Below are positions 41,383 to 51,636 of a stretch of DNA of 64,000 nucleotides, piece by piece. This stretch comes from a virus (taxonomy: Duplodnaviria > Caudoviricetes). Location: positions 320,001-384,000 of IMG/VR virus record IMGVR_UViG_3300021255_002539; one strand, 5' to 3'. Numbering within the stretch: position 1 is the first letter of the stretch; the number at the start of each line of letters is the position of its first letter. A program made the position numbers and the translations under genes. The notes below the pieces were generated by a model that was not told where the DNA came from, made no database searches, and saw nothing but the letters and a program-made list of their open reading frames with translations.

Positions 41383-41680
41383 TGTTGTCCTTCCTCCTCT
41401 CGTGTTCAATCTTGCATTTCCAATACTCCGTAGCAGAATCCAGAAGCTCCCCACGTCACCTCTGGCACAAATCCACCAATGCACCAATAGTATTTCCATC
41501 GGACACATCAAGCTTTCCAGCAACCTCTGCCATTACATGAATGGCTTCCTCGGCTTTCTTGATTAGGACTTCATCTTTGTTCTTCATATCATGATTTTCC
41601 TCTAAGAAATTATACCACTTTTGGCTGAATTGGTAAAGTTTCAATCAGAATTCAGAATGGACTACTGTAGAAGACGACAA

Positions 41681-41710
41681 CAAAAAAGACGACATCCGAA
41701 GATGCCGTCT
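41681..41710 (-). terminator. Intrinsic terminator closing the RNA array
   Basis: AGACGGCATC-TTCG-GATGTCGTCT-TTTTT on minus strand. Confidence 0.8.
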
Positions 41711-41963
41711 ATCAAAAAGATTCGAGGGTTTTCTCGCCCAAGGCAAGTCCCATATCGCATATCAATGGGAAGCCCTTTCAGGCGAAGGACACTATGCTGT
41801 GCGTGTATCGTCCATGCCAACCCTATACCCAACATAGACACGACCCACCGCCTGCCAATCCATTACAAAAGATGTTCCGGAAACACCCATTGGTGGATAT
41901 GGCTGCGCATTGGGAAGATGTTTAGGACAGATTTAACAAGCCAATCGGGATATAGAAGGAAAC

Positions 41964-42052
41964 TGGAGCCACAGGTCCGATTTGAACGGACGCGACCATA
42001 AAGGTGCGGGTTTACAAAACCCGTGCAATCGACCTGGCTATGCGACTGTGGC
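41964..42052 (-). tRNA. tRNA-Thr(UGU) with long variable arm
   Basis: CGGGT-TTTGTAA-ACCCG; CCA encoded. Confidence 0.75.
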
Positions 42053-42060
42053 CTCGAAAC

Positions 42061-42135
42061 TGGTGGACCGCCGGGGAGTTCAACCCCGCTATCTGCCGTG
42101 CAAAGGCAGTGTAATAAGCGATATACGAGCAGCCC
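42061..42135 (-). tRNA. tRNA-Ala(UGC)
   Basis: CTGCC-TTTGCAC-GGCAG; G3:U70; CCA. Confidence 0.85.
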
Positions 42136-42168
42136 ATTGTAAATCTTGTTATGTTCAATTATACGAAA

Positions 42169-42924
42169 TCATTTAAGTAGAAGTGAATCATTCAGAACTA
42201 TCTTGCCATCTACAAAGTCCTTATACTGTTTCTCACCAATAAAGTAGATTCTTATTCCTGGATTGTTTTCCAAGACAAGACGCATCTTTTCCTTGTCTTT
42301 GTCTGAATAATAACCCTTTACTTCAACATACTCGTTTGTATCTGGTAAGTAGAAATCTGGATTATAGGTTTTGCGTATACCATCTTTAATGTATTTCAAT
42401 GTTTTGTTCCTAATCCAATTTATACCATTTGCTGTCAATTTGTTGGCAACATTCTCCTCCCAATGACCCCTTACAGTATATTCAACACCATCTAAATTCT
42501 TCACTTTGTACCAACCAACATCTTTGAATCCCACTTTACACGAATCAAGATATTTAGAACGAATTTCAGAAAGTTTCTCCCGCGTTTCTTTGGTATGATG
42601 GAAAGTTCTTCCTTTCTGCGAGATTTTGTTTTTCTCTGCTATTTGTCTTACTTTTGTTGATGTTTCACTGGTCAATCCCTTGTTCCATGCCATTCCCTTC
42701 TTGAATCCATGTTTCTCTTTTCTGTGGATTTGCATTTCGTTTCTTGTATGAAAAAGACCTCCACAAATTGTACACTTCCAAGTGTGTTGTTGCCTATTCA
42801 CATTAAAATTGCACACATGGTGCTTTACTTGCTTCGCAATATACGAACATCTACAATGCTTGGAGCAGAACCTTCCGCTTCCATACGAGCCATCATGCTC
42901 GTTTCCACATACTTCACATATCAT
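42169..42924 (-). CDS. Free-standing homing endonuclease (Zn fingers, NUMOD3-like, PD-(D/E)xK)
   Basis: AWNKG, HTKETREKLS, YNPDFYLP...VEVKGY; AT-rich insert. Confidence 0.8.
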   Translation of the reverse strand: MICEVCGNEHDGSYGSGRFCSKHCRCSYIAKQVKHHVCNFNVNRQQHTWKCTICGGLFHTRNEMQIHRKEKHGFKKGMAWNKGLTSETSTKVRQIAEKNKISQKGRTFHHTKETREKLSEIRSKYLDSCKVGFKDVGWYKVKNLDGVEYTVRGHWEENVANKLTANGINWIRNKTLKYIKDGIRKTYNPDFYLPDTNEYVEVKGYYSDKDKEKMRLVLENNPGIRIYFIGEKQYKDFVDGKIVLNDSLLLK

Positions 42925-43045
42925 AATCTTTTTACCTTTAGTTTAATGTCGTTGTTCTAGCAACGACATATCTATTTATAATTATACGAAAAGTTGCCTC
43001 CCAACTTGTGTTGGCTAGAACCATGACGGTTGGGAAGCGCAATGT

Positions 43046-43121
43046 TGGTAGGAGGGGTGGTAGTTGCAACCACGACCCATTGCTTATAAGACAATCGCTC
43101 TTACTGCTGAGCTACCCTCCC
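43046..43121 (-). tRNA. tRNA-Ile(UAU)
   Basis: ATTGT-CTTATAA-GCAAT; CCA. Confidence 0.8.
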
Positions 43122-43235
43122 GTTGAAATGAAAAAGTTGAAGCCCAGGAAATGGGTCAAAGACACCGGTTTTCTTCCGGAGTGAAATTCCCATCTTCGCC
43201 GTTTGGACATTTCTGCTTTACACCTCCTGGACTTC

Positions 43236-43398
43236 TGGGAGTTGCATCCAGTGCGTTCAATCACTCCGCCACTATGCTGCGGGCTGCAACAAGGAGGGAT
43301 TCAAACCCCCGGTCGAGTATCCTATATAGGAGCATGGGTGGCAGAAAGCAACCGGTGCGCGATTGCCACCACTCGACTCTGAATGCTGTTATCTCCCA
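43236..43398 (-). ncRNA. Circularly permuted tRNA-like RNA (YrlA-like topology)
   Basis: T arm precedes a loop-closed acceptor stem and then the D arm; all closed by terminal helices. Confidence 0.6.
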
Positions 43399-43414
43399 TT
43401 TAACTTGAAAAACT

Positions 43415-43489
43415 TGGAGCGAACGATGGGTGCTGCCCCCACTTGATCCAACCTGGCAGATTGGTGTACTGCTGATGTACCACGTTCGC
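43415..43489 (-). tRNA. tRNA-Gly(GCC)
   Basis: CCAAT-CTGCCAG-GTTGG; atypical T-loop GGCAGCA. Confidence 0.8.
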
Positions 43490-43747
43490 ATTGAAATGGT
43501 GTGAGATTCGAGGACTCTTACCCCCATTACCATCAACTTGGAATGCGGACTTGACGTCCTAATCCACATTCTGCTTGATGACCAAGCGGACTCACCGGCC
43601 GAATGGCATTCTACCAAGGAGCGACCTTGGCATTGAAACTTGGAGCCCCGATACAAGTACGACTTGATCCAATCCTCCATTACTGGGTGGGATTGACATT
43701 CCCCGTTATGGAATTACCGAAGCATGTTGAAATCGTCTATATGAAAT

Positions 43748-43821
43748 TGGTTGTCCCGCCTGGGTTCGGACCAGGTCTAAGGGTATCAAAAACCCCTGTG
43801 CAGCCGATACACCACGGGACA
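43748..43821 (-). tRNA. tRNA-Gln(UUG)
   Basis: Loop TTTTGAT; U1:A72. Confidence 0.8.
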
Positions 43822-44276
43822 TTTTGAAATTGGCGGTGGCGTTGGGTTCGCACCAACAGTCTCGTGGGGCTTTGGGGAATTTTTAGTACGCACGAATGCA
43901 AGGCGAGAGCCTATAGTCAACTGAGGCAGAACTTGACATTCCAACCCCAATCCAAACTCGCCAACCCCAGGGTCACCTGGCTCCCTGCATGGAAGTTGTC
44001 AAGACCTCCACGCAACTTCTGTGACACTACTTGCTCCTCGTTCCCTTGGAACATGCCCTTTGTTCTTTTGTGTTTGAACTATCCACCATTGAAAGGGTCT
44101 GCAGACTGTCTTTACATTGGAATCTCTGCAGGGAAACCAACAACCAGACCTGACTAGCAGGGTTTCGTTTCTCGTCTGGTATGCCATCTAGCATAGCGAT
44201 ACACGCAGTGGGCTACGCTGCTCCCTGGGTCTGCTTTCCTCCCAGCTCAGCCCAACACGTTCTTGGGACTTGCATA

Positions 44277-44397
44277 TGGCGTCTGTGATATCCCACAATT
44301 GACTTCAATCAGCACATCGGGATTCGGACCACGGTTTCACTCTTCGTGTATTCTACCTTTTTGAACTATTTGTGCCTAATCTTCATGTGACAGACGC
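44277..44397 (-). ncRNA. tRNA-like RNA with extended acceptor helix and rudimentary anticodon arm
   Basis: GCGTCTGT/ACAGACGC terminal stem; D arm GTTC..GGTA-GAAT; T loop TCCGAAT. Confidence 0.5.
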
Positions 44398-44688
44398 ACA
44401 TTGAAATGCTTGAAGCGGAGATTGCTTATGTTTGACCGGTGCACCGGCAAGTTCATCGTGTTTACGGACCAGGAAAGAACCAGCTGACCCCTGAATCCTA
44501 TTTGTTAAGTGTCATGACACTTAACAACCCACTGGACGCTTGTTATGTCCTCTCCGCAGAATCTATCCAGGGGAAATCCACTTGTGGCATGCGATATATT
44601 TGGCGCAGGTGCCGTCGGCGCATATACTTTGTTTGCCGCACATATTCCCATATGAACCAATTGATCCACATGTGCCATAAGGGGAAAG

Positions 44689-44778
44689 TGGTGTGGAACG
44701 CCGGATTCGGACCGGCAATGTCCCGTTGGGGACGCAGGATTAGGAATCCTGTCGAGTGTCCAATTGTCGCAGTCCCAC
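44689..44778 (-). tRNA. tRNA-Arg(CCU) with long variable arm
   Basis: CAGGA-TTCCTAA-TCCTG; V arm GTCCC-CAAC-GGGAC. Confidence 0.75.
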
Positions 44779-44915
44779 ATGTTGAAATTGGTGGCTGTCT
44801 TGCGGGTATCAACCCCGCTGTCTCCCCAACGGGCGATGCATCAACCCATCTTGTCAGGGAACCCGTTTTACGCACAGGCCAGGACCAAATACCTGAGTAT
44901 CAAGCCATTGAAATC

Positions 44916-44990
44916 TGGCGGGGTAACGGGTAGTCGAAACCCGATAGTCTGCTCGACAGGCAGATGAACTAGCCGTTGTTCTATTACCCC
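44916..44990 (-). tRNA. tRNA-Asp(GUC)
   Basis: TCTGC-CTGTCGA-GCAGA. Confidence 0.85.
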
Positions 44991-45155
44991 GAAATGGTGT
45001 GGTCTACCGAGATTGATTTCTCAATCTCGGCTTCATGCTTCATCGTCCCAACCGTGCTTGGTTTTCGCTAATCTATTATTGGTCGGAACTCCACATGCAT
45101 GTCGTTCGCAACGCGAACGATCCCTGCGACCCACAGGTACTGAAACCAAATCGTC

Positions 45156-45242
45156 CAATTGTCAAAGAACAACCTTTGTCTAATGCGCAAGCATTATTCA
45201 AAGAGCATATCCAATTATACAACACATCCAGTCAAATGTAAA
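45156..45242 (-). promoter_or_regulatory. Internal array promoter plus boxA-like element
   Basis: TTTACA-N17-TATAAT, then GTTCTTTGACAATTG. Confidence 0.65.
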
Positions 45243-45291
45243 GTGGTTTCCGATGTTGGATTTGAACCAACGACTCCAATCGGAATCAAAC

Positions 45292-45367
45292 TGGTAGATG
45301 TGGAGAGAATCGAACTCCCGACGCATACCATGTGAAGGTATCGCTCTAGCCACTGAGCTACACATCC
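45292..45367 (-). tRNA. tRNA-Val(CAC)
   Basis: ATACC-TTCACAT-GGTAT. Confidence 0.9.
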
Positions 45368-45376
45368 ATTTGAAAC

Positions 45377-45455
45377 TGGGTCGCCGTGCAGAATTCGAAT
45401 CTGCGATTTCCTCGTTCACAGCGAGGCGTCTTAACCAGGCTCGACTAACGGCAAC
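45377..45455 (-). tRNA. tRNA-His(GUG)
   Basis: CCTCG-CTGTGAA-CGAGG; G-1:C73. Confidence 0.9.
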
Positions 45456-45462
45456 ATCTAAA

Positions 45463-45555
45463 TGGCGGATGAGGCGCGTCCCGGCCGCGCATGCCCGATT
45501 TCTCGGAGCCATTCGCTTTCCAAGCGAAGCTGTTTGCCAATTCCAGCACTCATCC
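45463..45555 (-). tRNA. tRNA-Ser(GGA)
   Basis: TTCGC-TTGGAAA-GCGAA; long V arm. Confidence 0.8.
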
Positions 45556-45563
45556 ATAAACTG

Positions 45564-45655
45564 CGGAGCAAGCAGGCTCTGCCCCTGCGGGGGACATTTC
45601 TGCCCCACGACGGATTAGCAATCCGCGCCCTTATGACTGACTTGGGTATTGCTCC
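45564..45655 (-). tRNA. tRNA-Ser(GCU), CCA not encoded
   Basis: GCGGA-TTGCTAA-TCCGT. Confidence 0.8.
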
Positions 45656-45666
45656 ATGTTGAAATC

Positions 45667-45750
45667 CGGATGCGGAGCGACTCGAACGCCCAATCCCGTG
45701 AAGGACACCTGAGTTCAAATCAGGCCGACTACCAATTATCACACGCATCC
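45667..45750 (-). tRNA. tRNA-Ser(UGA), CCA not encoded
   Basis: CCTGA-TTTGAAC-TCAGG. Confidence 0.8.
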
Positions 45751-45765
45751 ATAAATTGAAATCTG

Positions 45766-45851
45766 CAGATGGAGCTGGAATTGCACCAACATGTGACTTT
45801 CGCCACCCCGACTTTCGAGGTCGGACCTTTACTGTTTAGGAGAATCCATCC
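45766..45851 (-). tRNA. tRNA-Ser(CGA), CCA not encoded
   Basis: CCGAC-CTCGAAA-GTCGG. Confidence 0.75.
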
Positions 45852-46496
45852 ATCTTGTGAAATTGAAAAGGATATGGCGTTCCTGTTTCGCAAGATTATG
45901 AACCTTGGACGACATGGACTCAAAGAACTACTCCTGGTGGCTGGCAACATCTTCCGGAAGTTTTATGTGCTTGGCTGTTTCAGCACCTCCAGTTGGCAGA
46001 TATTTCGTTCTTAAGGCAAGCCATCTTGCCTTGGTATTTTTCTTTCCTCACGAAAGAAAAACAACCAACAAAAAGAAATCATCTATTAAATCAAAAGAAC
46101 CATCCGATTGGGAGTTGCTTCACCTTGCGGTTCATCAACCATCGCAGGACTTCCCACGACTTTTCAATATATCCCATTTATCTGCATCCAAATGCCAGCA
46201 ATTGCCATCTTGTTGAGAGTTATCACCTTCGTATGTTCTAGTTTATCAGAACACACCTCTCGGTGGTTGCCGTGGTGAACATTGCATTTGGGTAGCCTTT
46301 CTTTCGGGTATGCACTCAATGGAAGGACTTGAACACTTCATGGTAATGGGCTTTTGCTCATCTACATTAAGATGAACATCGCCAGCCAACCTACCATCAT
46401 GGCGAATGACCGAACGAGTTGCCACTACTCTCGTCACTGAGCTGCCGTTGAAGCATTAAGCATACTGGGTTTAACTCCCCATCTGGTTCATTTAAA

Positions 46497-46574
46497 TGGC
46501 ACCTCTGGTCGGACTTGCACCGGCAAATATCCTGGATGAAAACCAGGTGACTCTACTAATTTGTCTACAGAGGC
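46497..46574 (-). tRNA. tRNA-Glu(UUC)
   Basis: CCTGG-TTTTCAT-CCAGG. Confidence 0.85.
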
Positions 46575-46581
46575 ATTGAAA

Positions 46582-46657
46582 TGGCAGTCTTAATGTGATT
46601 TGAACACATGTTTCGGGAGTGAGGTTCCCGCGTCCTAACCAACTAGACGATAAGACC
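46582..46657 (-). tRNA. tRNA-Glu(CUC), C33
   Basis: CGGGA-ACCTCAC-TCCCG. Confidence 0.8.
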
Positions 46658-46781
46658 ATTCATTTGGCAATATTCAACCAATGTTCCAAGGGGGAATCGG
46701 ACCCGTTGTTGCCTATCGTCATACTTCTCACCAGAGTAGGAACATCGGTCATGGAATTGCCCAACCATCTTGCAAGTCATT

Positions 46782-46858
46782 TGGAGAGCAAGGTGGGAAT
46801 CGAACCCACATTTGCGGATTTGCAGTCCGCCGCCAAGACCACTATTGGCAACTCGCCC
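46782..46858 (-). tRNA. tRNA-Cys(GCA)
   Basis: GCGGA-CTGCAAA-TCCGC; U73. Confidence 0.9.
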
Positions 46859-46939
46859 ATAAAAATGTGGAAGGTGGGTCTGGTTACCCACAACTTGTTC
46901 CTGGACAGGATTGTTTTTGCTGAAGACTACTTCCACAAA

Positions 46940-47013
46940 TGGCAAGGGCGATGCGAATCGAACACATGTCTTCAGTTTTGGAGACTGAGATACTACCACT
47001 GTATGACGCCCTT
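46940..47013 (-). tRNA. tRNA-Trp(CCA)
   Basis: TCAGT-CTCCAAA-ACTGA; A1:U72, G73. Confidence 0.9.
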
Positions 47014-47021
47014 ATTGAAAC

Positions 47022-47101
47022 TGGTAGGACTGGCGAGACTCGAACTCGCAAATCTCTTCGTTCGTAGCGAAGTGCAGTAGATCCGATTTTGCTACAGTCC
47101 C
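47022..47101 (-). tRNA. tRNA-Arg(ACG)
   Basis: CTTCG-CTACGAA-CGAAG. Confidence 0.9.
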
Positions 47102-47109
47102 ATTGAAAT

Positions 47110-47183
47110 TGGTTGGGGATGATGGTATTGCGCCACCTCTAAGAGGTTCAGAGCCTCCTGTACCACTTTTATACGAATCCCCA
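47110..47183 (-). tRNA. tRNA-Gln(CUG)
   Basis: GGAGG-CTCTGAA-CCTCT; U1:A72. Confidence 0.85.
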
Positions 47184-47193
47184 ATTGAAATCC

Positions 47194-47379
47194 TCAAACT
47201 TCCTCGCAGAAGTGCTTGCTTATCCTGAAACCCACTCCCTTGAGTTGATACACAGGCTTGCCATCGTTTCCAGTGCATTCGCCAATCACCTTGAAAGTCT
47301 CCCCTTGGTGTTCCCTAATCCACCTCTTGAAGTCCTCTGATTGCCAGGACGCGCTTGATTCAACTACCTTTACGAACAT
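47194..47379 (-). CDS. Small hypothetical protein inside the RNA array
   Basis: AAGGAGG SD; 61 aa. Confidence 0.65.
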   Translation of the reverse strand: MFVKVVESSASWQSEDFKRWIREHQGETFKVIGECTGNDGKPVYQLKGVGFRISKHFCEEV

Positions 47380-47605
47380 GTCTTTCCTCCTTGTTCTTCT
47401 TGATGAAATGGTGGCAACATCCGATTCTCACGGAACCTGCGACCACCAATGTCGCTGCGCTCATATGACCACCCTATCTAGAGTCAGATGGTCAAGTCCC
47501 TGTTTCTGGTGGAAGGCGAATTCAATTCCCTTCATACCCTTTGGGATTATACTATATTGCCTAAATTGGTGGACTAGTGCCGCACAAGGCGACATTGACC
47601 ATAAA

Positions 47606-47680
47606 TGGTGGACCGGCGGGGTAACGCTCCCCGACTCTTTCGTTGCGAACGAAAAGTGCTGCTTCTATCACTATCGGCCC
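47606..47680 (-). tRNA. tRNA-Ala(CGC)
   Basis: TTTCG-TTCGCAA-CGAAA; G3:U70. Confidence 0.8.
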
Positions 47681-48036
47681 ATTGAAAGGGAATGTTCAAG
47701 TTATCGGGCCCAGCCCTCTGGCTTCTGCAAGGTTGGAACTTGCGAGAACTTTGCTGCGTGGGGAAACCCCCTTGGCAACCGTAGCCAGTTTGTCATTTGT
47801 TAACTATGGTGGAAAGTTCCGACTTGAATGAACTTGAACAAAAGCGCACACCTACCACATGGCTGGACTCGAACCAACACCTCCGCCCTATGACGGGCGG
47901 TGTGCCACCATTACACTACACATGATTTCGACCACTGCAAGATGGTCTTGCCCGGTGTCTGGCAAAATGTTCTCAATTATACGAAATAATCACCCTCAAA
48001 TCTGTTGGCTGCAACCATGAGTTTGGGGGTTGAAAT

Positions 48037-48369
48037 TGGTGGAGCGGAGGGGAATCGAACCCCTGTCCGAAACAGTCCTGTTGGACGCTTTCTACAACAG
48101 TTTCCTATGTCATTTAACCTCTCATCATAATAGGAATCAGATGACAGGCGAGAATCCCCATTGTAATGTTCCATCGGGTGGGGAAACCAGACCCAATGGA
48201 CATGCCAGACAATGAATTCCCTACTCAAGCCCCATCTGGCGTCAGGCTTTTTTGGTAGGCTTAAGCAGCCATTCTGTAATCGTTGCCGTTTACTTGTTTT
48301 GGAATTTACGCCTCCCGGCATGGTGCTGCGTCTTTGGGATATTGCTCCGTCGAATACCTGAACCGCCCC
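48037..48369 (-). ncRNA. ssrA: tmRNA, tag (A)GNDYRMAA*
   Basis: 5' GGGGCGG..TTCGAC; 3' GGGGTTCGATTCCCCTCCGCTCCACCA with G3:U70; tag ORF 48287-48261. Confidence 0.9.
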
Positions 48370-48379
48370 ATTGTCAAAT

Positions 48380-48455
48380 TGGTGGGAGGATGTGGGATCG
48401 AACCACAACCTTCGGATTTTCAGTCCGTAGTACACACCAAGTATACGATCCTCCC
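48380..48455 (-). tRNA. tRNA-Phe(GAA)
   Basis: Loop CTGAAAA. Confidence 0.9.
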
Positions 48456-48462
48456 GATGAAA

Positions 48463-48642
48463 TGGATGAGCGGGGTGGATTTGGACCACCAATGCCAAGG
48501 ACGAACAGTCGCACATTGAAAAGGAGCTACCTTTCTGGCAACTAGCGAAAACCCATGGGCATTGTGTTTTTTAACTCGCTTGTTATCGTCAATGGCTACC
48601 AGATTACGAATCCGGCGCGTTTGCCAATTCTGCTACCGCTCA
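48463..48642 (-). tRNA. tRNA-Thr(CGU)-like with ~105-nt variable-arm insertion
   Basis: Acceptor TGAGCGG/CCGCTCA-TCCA; CCGGA-TTCGTAA-TCTGG; T arm GGTGG-TCCAAAT-CCACC. Confidence 0.7.
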
Positions 48643-48645
48643 AAT

Positions 48646-48731
48646 TGGTTGCCAGTCAGGGTAACGCTCCCCGTGGGCTTTGAAACAAGTGATTTACAGT
48701 CACTCCTCGCTCTTTACGAGACTACCTGGCA
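48646..48731 (-). tRNA. tRNA-Tyr(GUA)
   Basis: AGTGA-CTGTAAA-TCACT. Confidence 0.8.
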
Positions 48732-48737
48732 ATAAAT

Positions 48738-48815
48738 TGGTTGGGCGAGTGGGTCACGATCCCACGACCTTCTGTGTATCAGACAGACTATCTAAACCAA
48801 CTGATATACCGCCCA
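48738..48815 (-). tRNA. tRNA-Ile(GAU)
   Basis: TCTGT-CTGATAC-ACAGA. Confidence 0.85.
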
Positions 48816-48828
48816 ATTGAAATCTTAA

Positions 48829-48902
48829 TGGTAGCGAGTGAGGTAGTCGAAACCCCATTGAAGGATTATGATTCCCCTGTTCTGCCGTTGAACTAACTCG
48901 CC
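48829..48902 (-). tRNA. tRNA-Met/Ile2(CAU)
   Basis: Loop ATCATAA. Confidence 0.8.
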
Positions 48903-48905
48903 ATT

Positions 48906-48983
48906 TGGAGCTGGAAGAGGGTGACGATCCCACCACCTGCGGTTTACGAAACCGCCGCTCTACCAAGCATGAGCTATTCCAGC
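48906..48983 (-). tRNA. tRNA-Thr(CGU), canonical size
   Basis: GCGGT-TTCGTAA-ACCGC. Confidence 0.85.
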
Positions 48984-48994
48984 ATTGAAATCGT

Positions 48995-49073
48995 TGGTAG
49001 GGATGATGGGATTCGAACCCATACTACGATGACCCTGAATCATCCGCCGACTGCCAAATTGGTCTAGTCTCCC
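48995..49073 (-). tRNA. tRNA-Leu(CAG) with short variable loop
   Basis: GATGA-TTCAGGG-TCATC. Confidence 0.7.
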
Positions 49074-49079
49074 ATTATC

Positions 49080-49153
49080 TCCCGATGGAGGGAGTCGAAC
49101 CCACAACCAGGGAGTTTTAAATTCCCCTGCTCTGCCAATTGGCATACATCGGG
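49080..49153 (-). tRNA. tRNA-Leu(UAA) with short variable loop, CCA not encoded
   Basis: GGGAA-TTTAAAA-CTCCC (31:39 mismatch). Confidence 0.65.
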
Positions 49154-49199
49154 TCTAACACAGACAAGGAACAATGAACAACGAACCACAACAACAAAT

Positions 49200-49283
49200 T
49201 GGTGTGCGATAAAGGACTTGAACCTTCACATCTTTCGACACAGCCACCTCAAGGCTGCGTGTCTGCCGTTCCACCAATCGCAC
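49200..49283 (-). tRNA. tRNA-Leu(GAG)
   Basis: CAGCC-TTGAGGT-GGCTG. Confidence 0.9.
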
Positions 49284-49516
49284 AATAAAGGCCGCACCTA
49301 CCTCCAAAGTGGGAGTCGAACCCACGGGCAACACGTCTGCGCCCATGCCGATATTTGGAAGTTTTGTCCCTTATGAGACGCGCCTGATGCAAGGCGCAAC
49401 ATTGAAAGCCATCTTCTGACCTTTACATACGCAGTTGGAGTTGAACCAACCTCTCCTCCCCATGAGGGGAGCAACTATCCGAGAATACGAAAGGTGTGGA
49501 CAATCAATGCTTGAAA

Positions 49517-49591
49517 TGGTAGAAGCGACAGGTGCTGCCCCTGCATATCACATCTTAAGAGGATGTTGCCTAGCTGCTCGGCCACGCTTCC
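49517..49591 (-). tRNA. tRNA-Lys(CUU)
   Basis: ACATC-CTCTTAA-GATGT; T loop GGCAGCA. Confidence 0.85.
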
Positions 49592-49646
49592 AAAAATTGC
49601 TCCCCAACCTATGTTGGCACGAACCATGAGTTCGGGAACATTGAAA

Positions 49647-49737
49647 TGGCTCGGGTGAGAGGGTTCAAACCTCCAGGGGCGCAGTTTGCGTCTCGGCTTA
49701 ACAGGCCGTGCCGTTATCAGTTACGGTTTACACCCGA
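49647..49737 (-). tRNA. tRNA-Asn(GUU) with long variable arm
   Basis: CGGC-CTGTTAA-GCCG; G73. Confidence 0.75.
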
Positions 49738-49745
49738 ATAAATCT

Positions 49746-49820
49746 TGGAGCATCGTACCAGTGCTGCCCTGGTCTACTTCAGCTTGGAGGGCTGACGGAC
49801 GGCTGATGTCCCAACGATGC
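49746..49820 (-). tRNA. tRNA-Gly(UCC), C33
   Basis: TCAGC-CCTCCAA-GCTGA. Confidence 0.8.
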
Positions 49821-49828
49821 ATTTGAAA

Positions 49829-49916
49829 TGGTCCCGAGAGTGAGACTCGAACTCACACGTCTTTATGGGACAGCGGATTTTGAGTCCGCCAAGTCTACCA
49901 GTTCCATCATCTCGGG
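49829..49916 (-). tRNA. tRNA-Leu(CAA)
   Basis: GCGGA-CTCAAAA-TCCGC. Confidence 0.9.
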
Positions 49917-49923
49917 TTGAAAT

Positions 49924-49997
49924 TGGTCGGGGTGAGTGGAGTCGAACCACCGCCGTATGAACCCAAATCATAAGTGCTACCGTTATACCACACCCCG
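49924..49997 (-). tRNA. tRNA-Pro(UGG)
   Basis: TATGA-TTTGGGT-TCATA. Confidence 0.9.
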
Positions 49998-50521
49998 TTT
50001 GAAATTGAAAAGGTCGTTCTCAAAGGCAATCTATCGTGTTCTGGACAACACGGGTCAATTACTCCCTAGTTGCTTTCTCCCAGATACATGAATGTGTCTT
50101 ACTAATTTACGCGCAGGCACAATGTTGCTCTAGACCAATCGCAGGCCACTTGTGGGTTTTCTGCCCAATCCGTGCTTCTTACACCATGGAGCAATTCGAC
50201 TTGCCTTTGATTCATCGCATGAAAAACCAACTTTTACCTTGTTGGACTCGAACCAACCTCTCCTCCCCTGCCGGGAGGCGTACTGACCACTAATACGAAA
50301 GGTGTGGATTTCCATGCTAAATTGAAGTGGCTGTATCTCGCAGTCATGCCACATTGAAATTGAACAAGGCACTATTTGGATGACAAGTATCCAAAAGATT
50401 CCCAGCTCCGAACCGGGCGTTTCAATAACTAAGGCATAGACTGTCCATCTTGTCATAATGGTCATCTACACCCATAGCGGAGGCGTTTATCTCCTCAATC
50501 TTGTCGTGCCATGAAATCTAC

Positions 50522-50604
50522 TGGTAGCGGGTGACCGAGTTGCACGGTTGCTTTCGCACCAGGGTATGAACCTGGCAAGGGCGCTGCTCCCTAACACACC
50601 CGCA
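50522..50604 (-). tRNA. tRNA-Met(CAU), initiator-like 1:72 mismatch, with small V arm
   Basis: CCAGG-TTCATAC-CCTGG. Confidence 0.7.
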
Positions 50605-50730
50605 CTCTTGAAATAGCAAAACCATTCGCTTTAGACCCAAGGTTCTCATCTGAGTTTCCTCCAAGGGCTGACTCGCGCATGAGTATTCCCACATGGGGAA
50701 CAGTCTTTCCATCTTTCTTTTCCTCTATGT

Positions 50731-50850
50731 CAATTATCAAAGATCGCTTGTGATTGCCTTGCGTGGTTCAAGCAAACCTTGCTTTGCTTTAGCAAACCTT
50801 GCTTTGCTTTCACATCACATATTATACCACATTTGACTGGTATTTGTAAA
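50731..50850 (-). promoter_or_regulatory. Array promoter P2 plus boxA-like element
   Basis: CCCCC-TTTACA-N18-TATAAT, then GATCTTTGATAATTG. Confidence 0.7.
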
Positions 50851-50875
50851 GGGGGTTTGAAAAGTTTTTTGAAGT

Positions 50876-50952
50876 TGGTTGGGGTGACGGGGCTCGAACC
50901 CGCATCCCACGGTTTAAAGGACCGTTGCAGAATCCACTTTTGCTACACCCCA
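50876..50952 (-). tRNA. tRNA-Lys(UUU), C33
   Basis: ACGGT-CCTTTAA-ACCGT. Confidence 0.8.
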
Positions 50953-51102
50953 TCTGTTGAAATCCACTAAAAGCGCAAGCTCTAGACCTGGGGCTAATGA
51001 CTTCCTCCCAGGAAGACTCGCAATGCTCTACGCTCAGTCTTTACTTCTATATCCCACGAAGTTTGCTGGTTCTCGTGAACCCTCAAACATCTGTCCTAAA
51101 TT

Positions 51103-51228
51103 CAATTGTCAAAGATCAATGTCCTTGTCCCTGGACACTTGGGGTCTCAACTTGATTGATTCACTTGTGAATCCTCTCGTCTCAACGCTGCATATTATAT
51201 CATATTCTCTTCATGCTTGTAAAGGGGG
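51103..51228 (-). promoter_or_regulatory. Array promoter P1 plus boxA-like element
   Basis: CCCCC-TTTACA...TGATATATAAT, then GATCTTTGACAATTG. Confidence 0.65.
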
Positions 51229-51244: not shown

Positions 51245-51274
51245 TGGGATGACCTTTTTCTTTTTAGGTCATCC
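51245..51274. terminator. Hairpin insulating the array from upstream genes
   Basis: tgggatgacct...aggtcatccca. Confidence 0.6.
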
Positions 51275-51636
51275 CATCTTCCTCGTTTTCCTTGAAGGAT
51301 ACTCTCTTTACTCGCTCGTCCTTTTCTCCTTCTTTTACTATCCTCGGTTGATGTTCAGACCCACATGTTCTGATGCTTTCTTCGCCTCGTTATCTACCAA
51401 ATTGCGCTTCGTGCTGCCACAATACTGAAGTCGGGACTCGGCAAACGGCAACATGCCATTGGCTATCTGAGACATAAATCTCAGATTACCATGGTTCAAT
51501 GCGCCAAATTGCTGTGTCGTCATCGTCATGTTTTGTCTATCTATCTTTCTTTCCACCTTCTTCGGTGTTCGTATATTATTTACACGGAATCACTCGAAAA
51601 CCATGCTTCAATTATACGAAAAGTTCAGGAAAATTT

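Follow-up and report, generated by a model that had tools for sequence, protein, structure and literature searches.

The 64,000-nucleotide (nt) stretch analysed here (the window) is taken from the virus record IMGVR_UViG_3300021255_002539, bases 320001-384000. That record is complete at 414,060 bp, carries direct terminal repeats and has a G+C content of 48%. The window's array of transfer RNA (tRNA) genes is flanked by two nested pairs of complementary 12-nt arms, A/A' and B/B'. On balance, we read these arms as the strands of an RNA leader-trailer helix of the kind known from precursor ribosomal RNA (pre-rRNA), recruited to a phage operon of tRNAs and other non-coding RNAs (ncRNAs). The most secure part of this reading is that arm complementarity has been selected at the RNA level, which the arms of relatives make likely.

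Relatives were reached through the proteins encoded next to the array, and both array ends are present in four lineages: the window itself; G001, a 201-kb IMG/VR contig; L190, L191 and L192, three ENA gut assemblies with whole arrays; and L196, a Logan contig of 44 kb found by contig walking. A further locus, L044, comes from a 422-kb ENA contig that is 100% identical to G001 over the 20.3 kb compared. Two more contigs, L047 and L048, hold only the trailer. Metagenome runs with pieces of the array come from gut, bovine gut and sheep gut.

ARAGORN places 27 tRNA genes and a transfer-messenger RNA (tmRNA) between 41964 and 50952, every one on the minus strand, and outside the array the genome carries just one further tRNA. 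The RNA therefore reads from right to left, with the 5' leader, and with it the right-hand arms (51100-51044), at the right end in the window; the left-hand arms (41958-41921) belong to the 3' trailer. The elements of this unit, in the order of transcription, are:

51250-51290, minus strand: intrinsic terminator ahead of the array (GGGATGACC...GGTCATCCC, then a T run), kept in G001 and L196
51194-51223, minus strand: promoter P1, sigma-70 type (TTTACA, 18 nt, TG-TATAAT), 11/12 matches, kept in G001, L190 and L196
51101-51117, minus strand: boxA of the rrn type (GAUCUUUGACAAUUGAA), a 17-mer match to bacterial loci
51089-51100, minus strand: arm A, 5' strand (UUUAGGACAGAU), from the inverted-repeat search and four-lineage pair table
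51056-51088, minus strand: junction hairpin of 33 nt between the 5' arms, variable in sequence, its fold kept in five lineages
51044-51055, minus strand: arm B, 5' strand (GGGAUAUAGAAG), pairing extendable to 51040
41964-50952, minus strand: enclosed array with 27 tRNA genes, tmRNA, conserved spacer RNAs and an endonuclease open reading frame (ORF) at 42169-42924
50730-50850, minus strand: second promoter and boxA unit (P2, boxA2 GATCTTTGATAATTGA), without arms, from the promoter and motif scan
45155-45242, minus strand: third promoter and boxA-like unit (P3, GTTCTTTGACAATTGG), without arms, from the same scan
41947-41958, minus strand: arm B', 3' strand (CUUCUAUAUCCC), 5 nt past the CCA of the last tRNA
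41933-41946, minus strand: spacer of 14 nt between the 3' arms, about 2 nt in L047, L048 and L190 and absent in L196
41921-41932, minus strand: arm A', 3' strand (AUCUGUCCUAAA), from the inverted-repeat search and four-lineage pair table
41687-41710, minus strand: intrinsic terminator ending the array unit, replaced in G001 by a different hairpin and T run

Read along the minus strand, the 5' end thus runs terminator, P1, hairpin, boxA, arm A, hairpin, arm B, an element of ~85 nt and tRNA-Lys, and the 3' end runs tRNA-Thr, 5 nt, arm B', 14-nt spacer, arm A', a segment of ~205 nt and the terminator at 41710-41687, after which comes the promoter of the next gene. The upstream terminator should isolate the array as a transcription unit of its own, with a predicted P1 start near 51187. 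The hairpin between P1 and boxA is not conserved, and no strong intrinsic terminator was found inside the array on the minus strand.

The segment at 41921-41932 (TTTAGGACAGAT) is the perfect reverse complement of 51089-51100, and that at 41947-41958 (GGGATATAGAAG) the perfect reverse complement of 51044-51055, nested in the order A-B...B'-A'. A first-pass annotation, made from the letters alone, had reported these two exact 12-bp pairs, and its coordinates and order were verified. It had also placed the start of the pairing just after boxA and the arms directly after the array's end, and both placements hold: boxA (GATCTTTGACAATTGAA) occupies 51117-51101 with arm A beginning at 51100, directly after the 17-mer, and tRNA-Thr ends at 41964 with arm B' following from 41958. 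Helix B can be extended to 16 nt with one mismatch. Co-folding of short leader and trailer pieces yields a three-way junction with two ~12-bp helices, the same in the window, L190 and L196, and these helices could stack across the junction to ~24 bp.

The two arm pairs are the sole nested inverted-repeat pair of at least 12 nt in the window. Third-order Markov simulations produced a nested pair somewhere in 14 of 300 windows, and the nested pattern by itself, taken without its position, is only mildly unusual per window. Both pairs fall within the 235-nt leader and the 279-nt trailer of one transcription unit, between which we calculate ~0.004 expected 12-mer complements, and because of this placement chance is negligible. 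Each arm 12-mer has one copy per strand in the entire 414,060-bp genome.

The boxA 17-mer is identical in >120 bacterial genome loci. The 5' end of 16S rRNA lies 56-231 nt downstream of it in 10 of the 80 bacterial loci checked, and other bacterial copies come after a tRNA, seemingly in the 16S-23S spacer. Because the 17-mer is identical to bacterial loci that include rrn leaders, the boxA call is sound. Only three boxA-like motifs occur in the genome (51117, 50745 and 45170), all in the array, on the same strand and each after a promoter. A downstream complement comparable to the arms is found for the first of them only, with none after boxA2 or boxA3.

Arm pairing among relatives

The four lineages were compared in a pair table, for which the arm sequences were taken from the results for the individual lineages. 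The G001 array is syntenic with that of the window and has both ends. Its helix A forms 10 of 12 pairs, and each of the two 5'-arm substitutions is matched by a compensating change in the 3' arm (U-A to A-U and A-U to C-G); helix B forms 10 Watson-Crick pairs and one G-U. By our estimate, two such compensated double changes would have a probability of ~0.01 under neutrality. In L190, L191 and L192 the 5' arms are UUUAGGACCGAU and GGGAUAUAGAAG, and the 3' strand, CUUCUAUAUCC-AA-AUCGUCCUAAA, lies ~20 nt before the terminator. Helix A consists here of 8 bp, a bulged C and 3 bp, and helix B of 11 bp.

The decisive case is L196. Its leader reads boxA GAACUUUGACAACUGA, A, UUUGACGACGAU, hairpin UCCGAAAGCAAUUUCGGA, A, UGCGAUAAGGAA, and its trailer, UUUCUUAUCGCA joined without a gap to AUCGUCGUCAAA, comes 13.7 kb further downstream and abuts the CCA end of tRNA-Thr(ggt). 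Arm A (UUUGACGACGAU) pairs with AUCGUCGUCAAA over 12 bp and differs from the window's arm A at 6 of 12 positions; arm B (UGCGAUAAGGAA) pairs with UUUCUUAUCGCA through 11 Watson-Crick pairs and one G-U and differs from the window at 7 of 12 positions. The complement of arm A is single-copy in the 20.7-kb locus. The 3' arms of L196 follow the fourth-from-last tRNA, which leaves three tRNAs outside them.

Across the four lineages, at least two canonical pair types occur in 15 of the 24 columns of the table, and 91 of its 96 cells pair. In all four, the start of arm A lies 1-2 nt past the 16-nt core of boxA, and the hairpin between the 5' arms, of a different sequence in each of five lineages, always folds. 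Complementarity in relatives had been named by the first-pass annotation as a check on its claim, and in close relatives it is kept and covaries. Since complementarity persists in L196 though both strands have been replaced, it is under selection. The one-sided hairpin, the 3'-strand spacing of 0-14 nt, the G-U pairs and the position of the arms, downstream of promoter and boxA inside a terminator-bracketed unit, fit RNA rather than DNA repeats.

Type-1 3' arms are retained in L047 and L048, the two contigs with a trailer only, which have neither the 14-nt spacer nor the 205-nt insert. Two other contigs, L187 and L188, have a type-2-like leader (UAUAUGACGAU...AUGCGAUAAGG) and end inside the array. 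Joining the L187 leader to the L048 trailer, which come from the same samples, as one lineage was considered and dropped; L190 pairs an L048-type trailer with a type-1 leader.

Proposed mechanism and rival readings

From the layout of the locus we infer pairing in vivo and in cis, involvement of Nus factors, and cleavage. Host Nus factors would modify RNA polymerase started at P1 when it passes boxA, permitting read-through of ~9.5 kb of untranslated RNA. As has been proposed for pre-16S rRNA, boxA would stay attached close to the polymerase's RNA exit channel, and the 5' arms, being adjacent to it, would be in place when the 3' arms emerge. A/A' and B/B' would then form the three-way junction, linking the two ends of the array transcript. 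The closed junction could serve as a double-strand processing site for host RNase III or as an end clamp; most likely, the helix closes P1-initiated full-length transcripts for processing or protection. Another possible role of the junction is to signal, just ahead of the terminator, where the antiterminated unit ends, because lineages with short trailers have the terminator within ~20 nt.

The cis, single-precursor version of the pairing is plausible, and we hold it tentatively. The first-pass annotation's proposal of one pre-rRNA-like precursor is accordingly kept in part: covarying pairing, an rrn-type boxA and bracketing terminators speak for it, internal promoter-boxA units (50850-50730 and 45242-45155) and further promoter-like sites weaken it, and the RNA contigs reach neither end. 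More doubtful is the fullest form of the idea, which we offer as a conjecture: that phage tRNA/ncRNA arrays of 8-14 kb are giant single precursors made by Nus-modified polymerase, in which a boxA-anchored leader zips onto the emerging trailer, giving the first leader-trailer helix outside rRNA, at once a processing entry site and an antitermination end signal.

Several points weigh against a leader-trailer helix. In G001, 3 of the 24 pairs are broken, and the constraint is thus not absolute. There are four lineages only, three of them with closely alike arms, and the covariation comes mostly from L196; the more distant trailers L051 and L053 are without arms. P2, P3 and other internal promoter-like sites, one of which lies directly before the last two tRNAs, would yield many trailer-bearing RNAs that lack the 5' arms. 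RNA contigs from two studies match the tmRNA and spacers inside the array but neither leader nor trailer; as contigs cannot show ends, this lack of cover is no evidence either way. Each helix is ~12 bp, which is short for RNase III, and no RNase III gene is among the proteins encoded by the complete phage genome. A joint in one DNA contig, described next, implies relatives without the arm-bearing leader and tRNA-Lys module.

That contig, from run X6, belongs to a relative of roughly 90-95% identity and joins 51209 to 50843 without the intervening 365-nt module. The module (50843-51209) consists of leader 1 with its arms and tRNA-Lys(ttt) and lies between two repeated promoters. Other contig joints show array modules rearranged among strains.

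The same arms could pair in trans. RNase P would free the P1 leader at tRNA-Lys, and the leader would pair with the trailers of transcripts from any array promoter, guiding their 3' processing or protecting them with no need for a 9.5-kb RNA. The several internal promoters of the array suit this scheme, as do the arms being present at the first of three boxA units only, and covariation agrees with trans as well as with cis pairing. However, trans pairing leaves unexplained why the arms lie 1-2 nt after boxA in every lineage, which is a prediction of the co-transcriptional cis model, and the stable leader fragment it calls for is without support, since RNA contigs give the leader no cover. We consider trans pairing unlikely, yet a serious rival.

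Alternatively, the arms might be DNA-level inverted repeats: sites for binding or recombination, or the ends of a mobile cassette of tRNA genes, whose similarity is maintained by gene conversion or by a protein recognising the two copies. They do flank a mosaic region rich in homing-endonuclease genes, with module gain and loss in relatives. Such repeats would nevertheless not account for the unequal spacing at the two ends (33 nt versus 14, 2 or 0 nt), a covarying hairpin on one side only, G-U positions that would count as repeat mismatches, or arms that lie inside the transcription unit, past promoter and boxA, and in L196 leave three tRNAs outside. The array was in inverted orientation in none of the relatives examined, and no transposase was among the ORFs scanned, nor does the locus show the terminal inverted repeats of a mobile element. 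This reading strikes us as very improbable. Hardly credible is that the arms have no function and are a chance product or an old inverted duplication, merely inherited. A nested 12-mer pair does appear in ~5% of random 64-kb windows and G001 has lost 3 pairs, but the L196 arms are of different sequence, again perfectly complementary and in the same positions. Neutral inheritance is very unlikely because it cannot produce arms that are replaced and yet complementary.

Array contents and boxA in other genomes

Two further elements lie beside the arms:

50960-51043, minus strand: conserved leader element (AAAGACUG...GCGAGUC...GGUCUAGAGC) before tRNA-Lys, with a paralogue after boxA2
41713-41920, minus strand: trailer insert of ~205 nt, present in the window and G001 (~80% identical), absent in L047, L048 and L190

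The leader element recurs as AAAGACUG...GCGAGUC...GGUCUA(A/G)AGC at 51043-50960, after boxA1 and the arms, and at 50700-50620, after boxA2. The element is kept in G001, L187, L190 and L196 and may represent a leader structure or a small RNA. The trailer insert is not notably structured (fold z-score -1.04) and has no stable reading frame. A coding reading of the trailer was rejected: the plus-strand ORF at 41621-42001 has no family match, overlaps a tRNA and changes frame relative to G001, where a 1-nt indel in the insert speaks against coding. The motif TTTCGTATAATTGA occurs four times on the minus strand (42150-42172, 42973-42991, 47968-47990 and 51603-51625), in L053 directly precedes a boxA, and is probably a second promoter class inside and beside the array.

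Spacers between the tRNAs (43140-50516; for example 50330-50510, 47107-47187 and 46441-46491) show 91-98% DNA identity to G001, and a neighbouring protein, far below them, 51% amino-acid identity. Several spacers are covered by 100%-identical RNA contigs and have no Rfam match, and the conserved spacers are likely unannotated stable RNAs. At the gathering score and at E<=1, Rfam gave no match in leader, trailer or spacers other than the tRNAs and tmRNA.

One spacer segment, 46092-46496 (minus strand), is represented in RNA runs of two studies (X5 and X8) by circular unitigs that join 46496 to 46092 (405 nt). It begins right after the 3' end of tRNA-Glu(ttc), is closed by a long stem and has a z-score of -3.0 for its fold; we regard it as a candidate for a circular RNA, or a tandem form, excised from the spacer. 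Run X5 has a second circular junction, from 43407 to 43140, in which a single T is added. Among the phage's genes are those for a Ro60/TROVE protein and a T4 Rnl1-like RNA ligase (G000:C1:393313-394242; G000:C1:12037-12648), but none for RtcB; the ligase could seal the 5'-phosphate/3'-OH ends left by RNase P and RNase Z. The 251-aa product of the ORF at 42169-42924 (minus strand), within the array, is a Phage_endo_I/PHROG endonuclease with a faint zinc finger. DUF559, NUMOD3 and GIY-YIG genes occupy other array positions in relatives, which fits homing-driven mosaicism.

Another 29 viral contigs contain the boxA 17-mer without a mismatch, often directly after a promoter, and in 8 of these 29 unrelated contigs it lies beside or inside a tRNA array of the same orientation; loci noted for it are L018, L029, L037, L038, L040, L041 and L043. 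BoxA use for phage tRNA arrays thus looks widespread. The first-pass annotation had also raised the possibility that the array is a fossil rrn operon refilled with tRNAs, and this did not hold up. No rRNA or rRNA fragment was found at E<=1 in the array, which contains tRNAs, tmRNA and spacer RNAs, and because the same boxA stands beside tRNA arrays of unrelated phages, its presence points to recruitment rather than a relic. The unrelated phage contigs with this boxA beside tRNA arrays gave no convincing leader-trailer complement, and RNAduplex on their long flanks was uninformative. An 11-mer complement in L038 was rejected; it lies in GC-rich, probably coding DNA. For now, leader-trailer arms appear confined to one phage family.

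Wider searches added no array. Megablast and blastn against 50,697 phage records returned single tRNA matches only and no relative; a metagenome scan with a trailer 20-mer gave two unrelated chance matches; and viral-contig scans with a trailer 25-mer and the leader-element pattern gave G001 or unrelated coding DNA only. Relatives of the 178-aa upstream ORF amounted to one short contig with no leader on it, and the P0063 and P0072 contigs hold the 83-aa neighbour protein in another context with no array. The boxA 17-mer is also multi-copy in two gut metagenome-assembled genomes, with 14 copies in 'Azospirillum sp. 51_20' and 8 in an Anaerovoracaceae bin among the 80 matches listed. These copies (among loci L066-L143) lie mostly near contig ends, after a conserved short motif, and may represent either a leader element that is repeated or phage DNA binned with these genomes.

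Comparison with known systems

In the literature that could be searched, neither leader-trailer helices nor boxA turned up for phage tRNA arrays, which does not prove that none has been described; in our reading, what would be new is an rRNA-type leader-trailer layout, itself of a known kind, on a phage tRNA/ncRNA operon. In pre-rRNA, the leader strand of the leader-trailer helix (boxC) comes after boxA, and the structure of this helix counts for more than its sequence; in the current model, NusB/NusE retain boxA at the RNA exit channel, and boxA in turn keeps the leader strand placed until the trailer emerges (PMC10250234; PMC11404451). The phage locus resembles this helix and the rrn antitermination complex (boxA; Nus factors, SuhB and S4) in that complementary segments on the same strand, one in the leader and one in the trailer, flank the mature RNAs of one operon. 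Its leader strand lies directly downstream of boxA, where Nus binding is predicted, its trailer strand lies close behind the last enclosed mature RNA, and covariation among relatives, mostly that of L196, supports the pairing. Unlike the pre-rRNA helix, it is phage-borne and encloses tRNAs, tmRNA and small RNAs rather than rRNA. It would form two ~12-bp helices at a three-way junction, whereas the RNase III-cleaved helix of Enterobacteriaceae is a single one of 25-40 bp; it spans 8-14 kb as against 1.5-3 kb; and two more boxA units, without arms, lie inside the array.

Leader-trailer helices and boxA-anchored RNA looping have so far been seen as a speciality of ribosome biogenesis. If our reading is true, the 'chaperone' mechanism of polymerase and Nus factors would be a general means of closing very long non-coding transcripts, one that phages have copied. 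The phage system is small and non-essential and has no confounding ribosome-assembly phenotype, and would therefore be suited to testing the looping model. It would also supply a search rule for annotating jumbo-phage operons: boxA, arm, hairpin, arm, and a complement after the last tRNA.

In rRNA operons, boxA protects long untranslated transcripts from Rho, and Stringer et al. are said to have described in 2020 a similar protection of CRISPR arrays by boxA in Salmonella. The phage locus shares with these systems a promoter-proximal boxA ahead of a long non-coding array and differs in that its boxA is coupled to a predicted long-range helix, whereas no trailer that pairs with the leader is described for them. 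If our reading is true, the phage locus would help explain how tens of tRNAs and small RNAs escape Rho termination in large phages. The tRNA cluster of phage T4, ~1.5 kb with 8 tRNAs, is co-transcribed with small stable RNAs, interspersed with homing-endonuclease genes and processed by host RNases; neither a leader-trailer helix nor a boxA is known for it, as far as we are aware. The array in the window resembles the T4 cluster in combining tRNAs with extra small RNAs and homing-endonuclease genes, and is set apart from it by its size, its proposed helix and its boxA.

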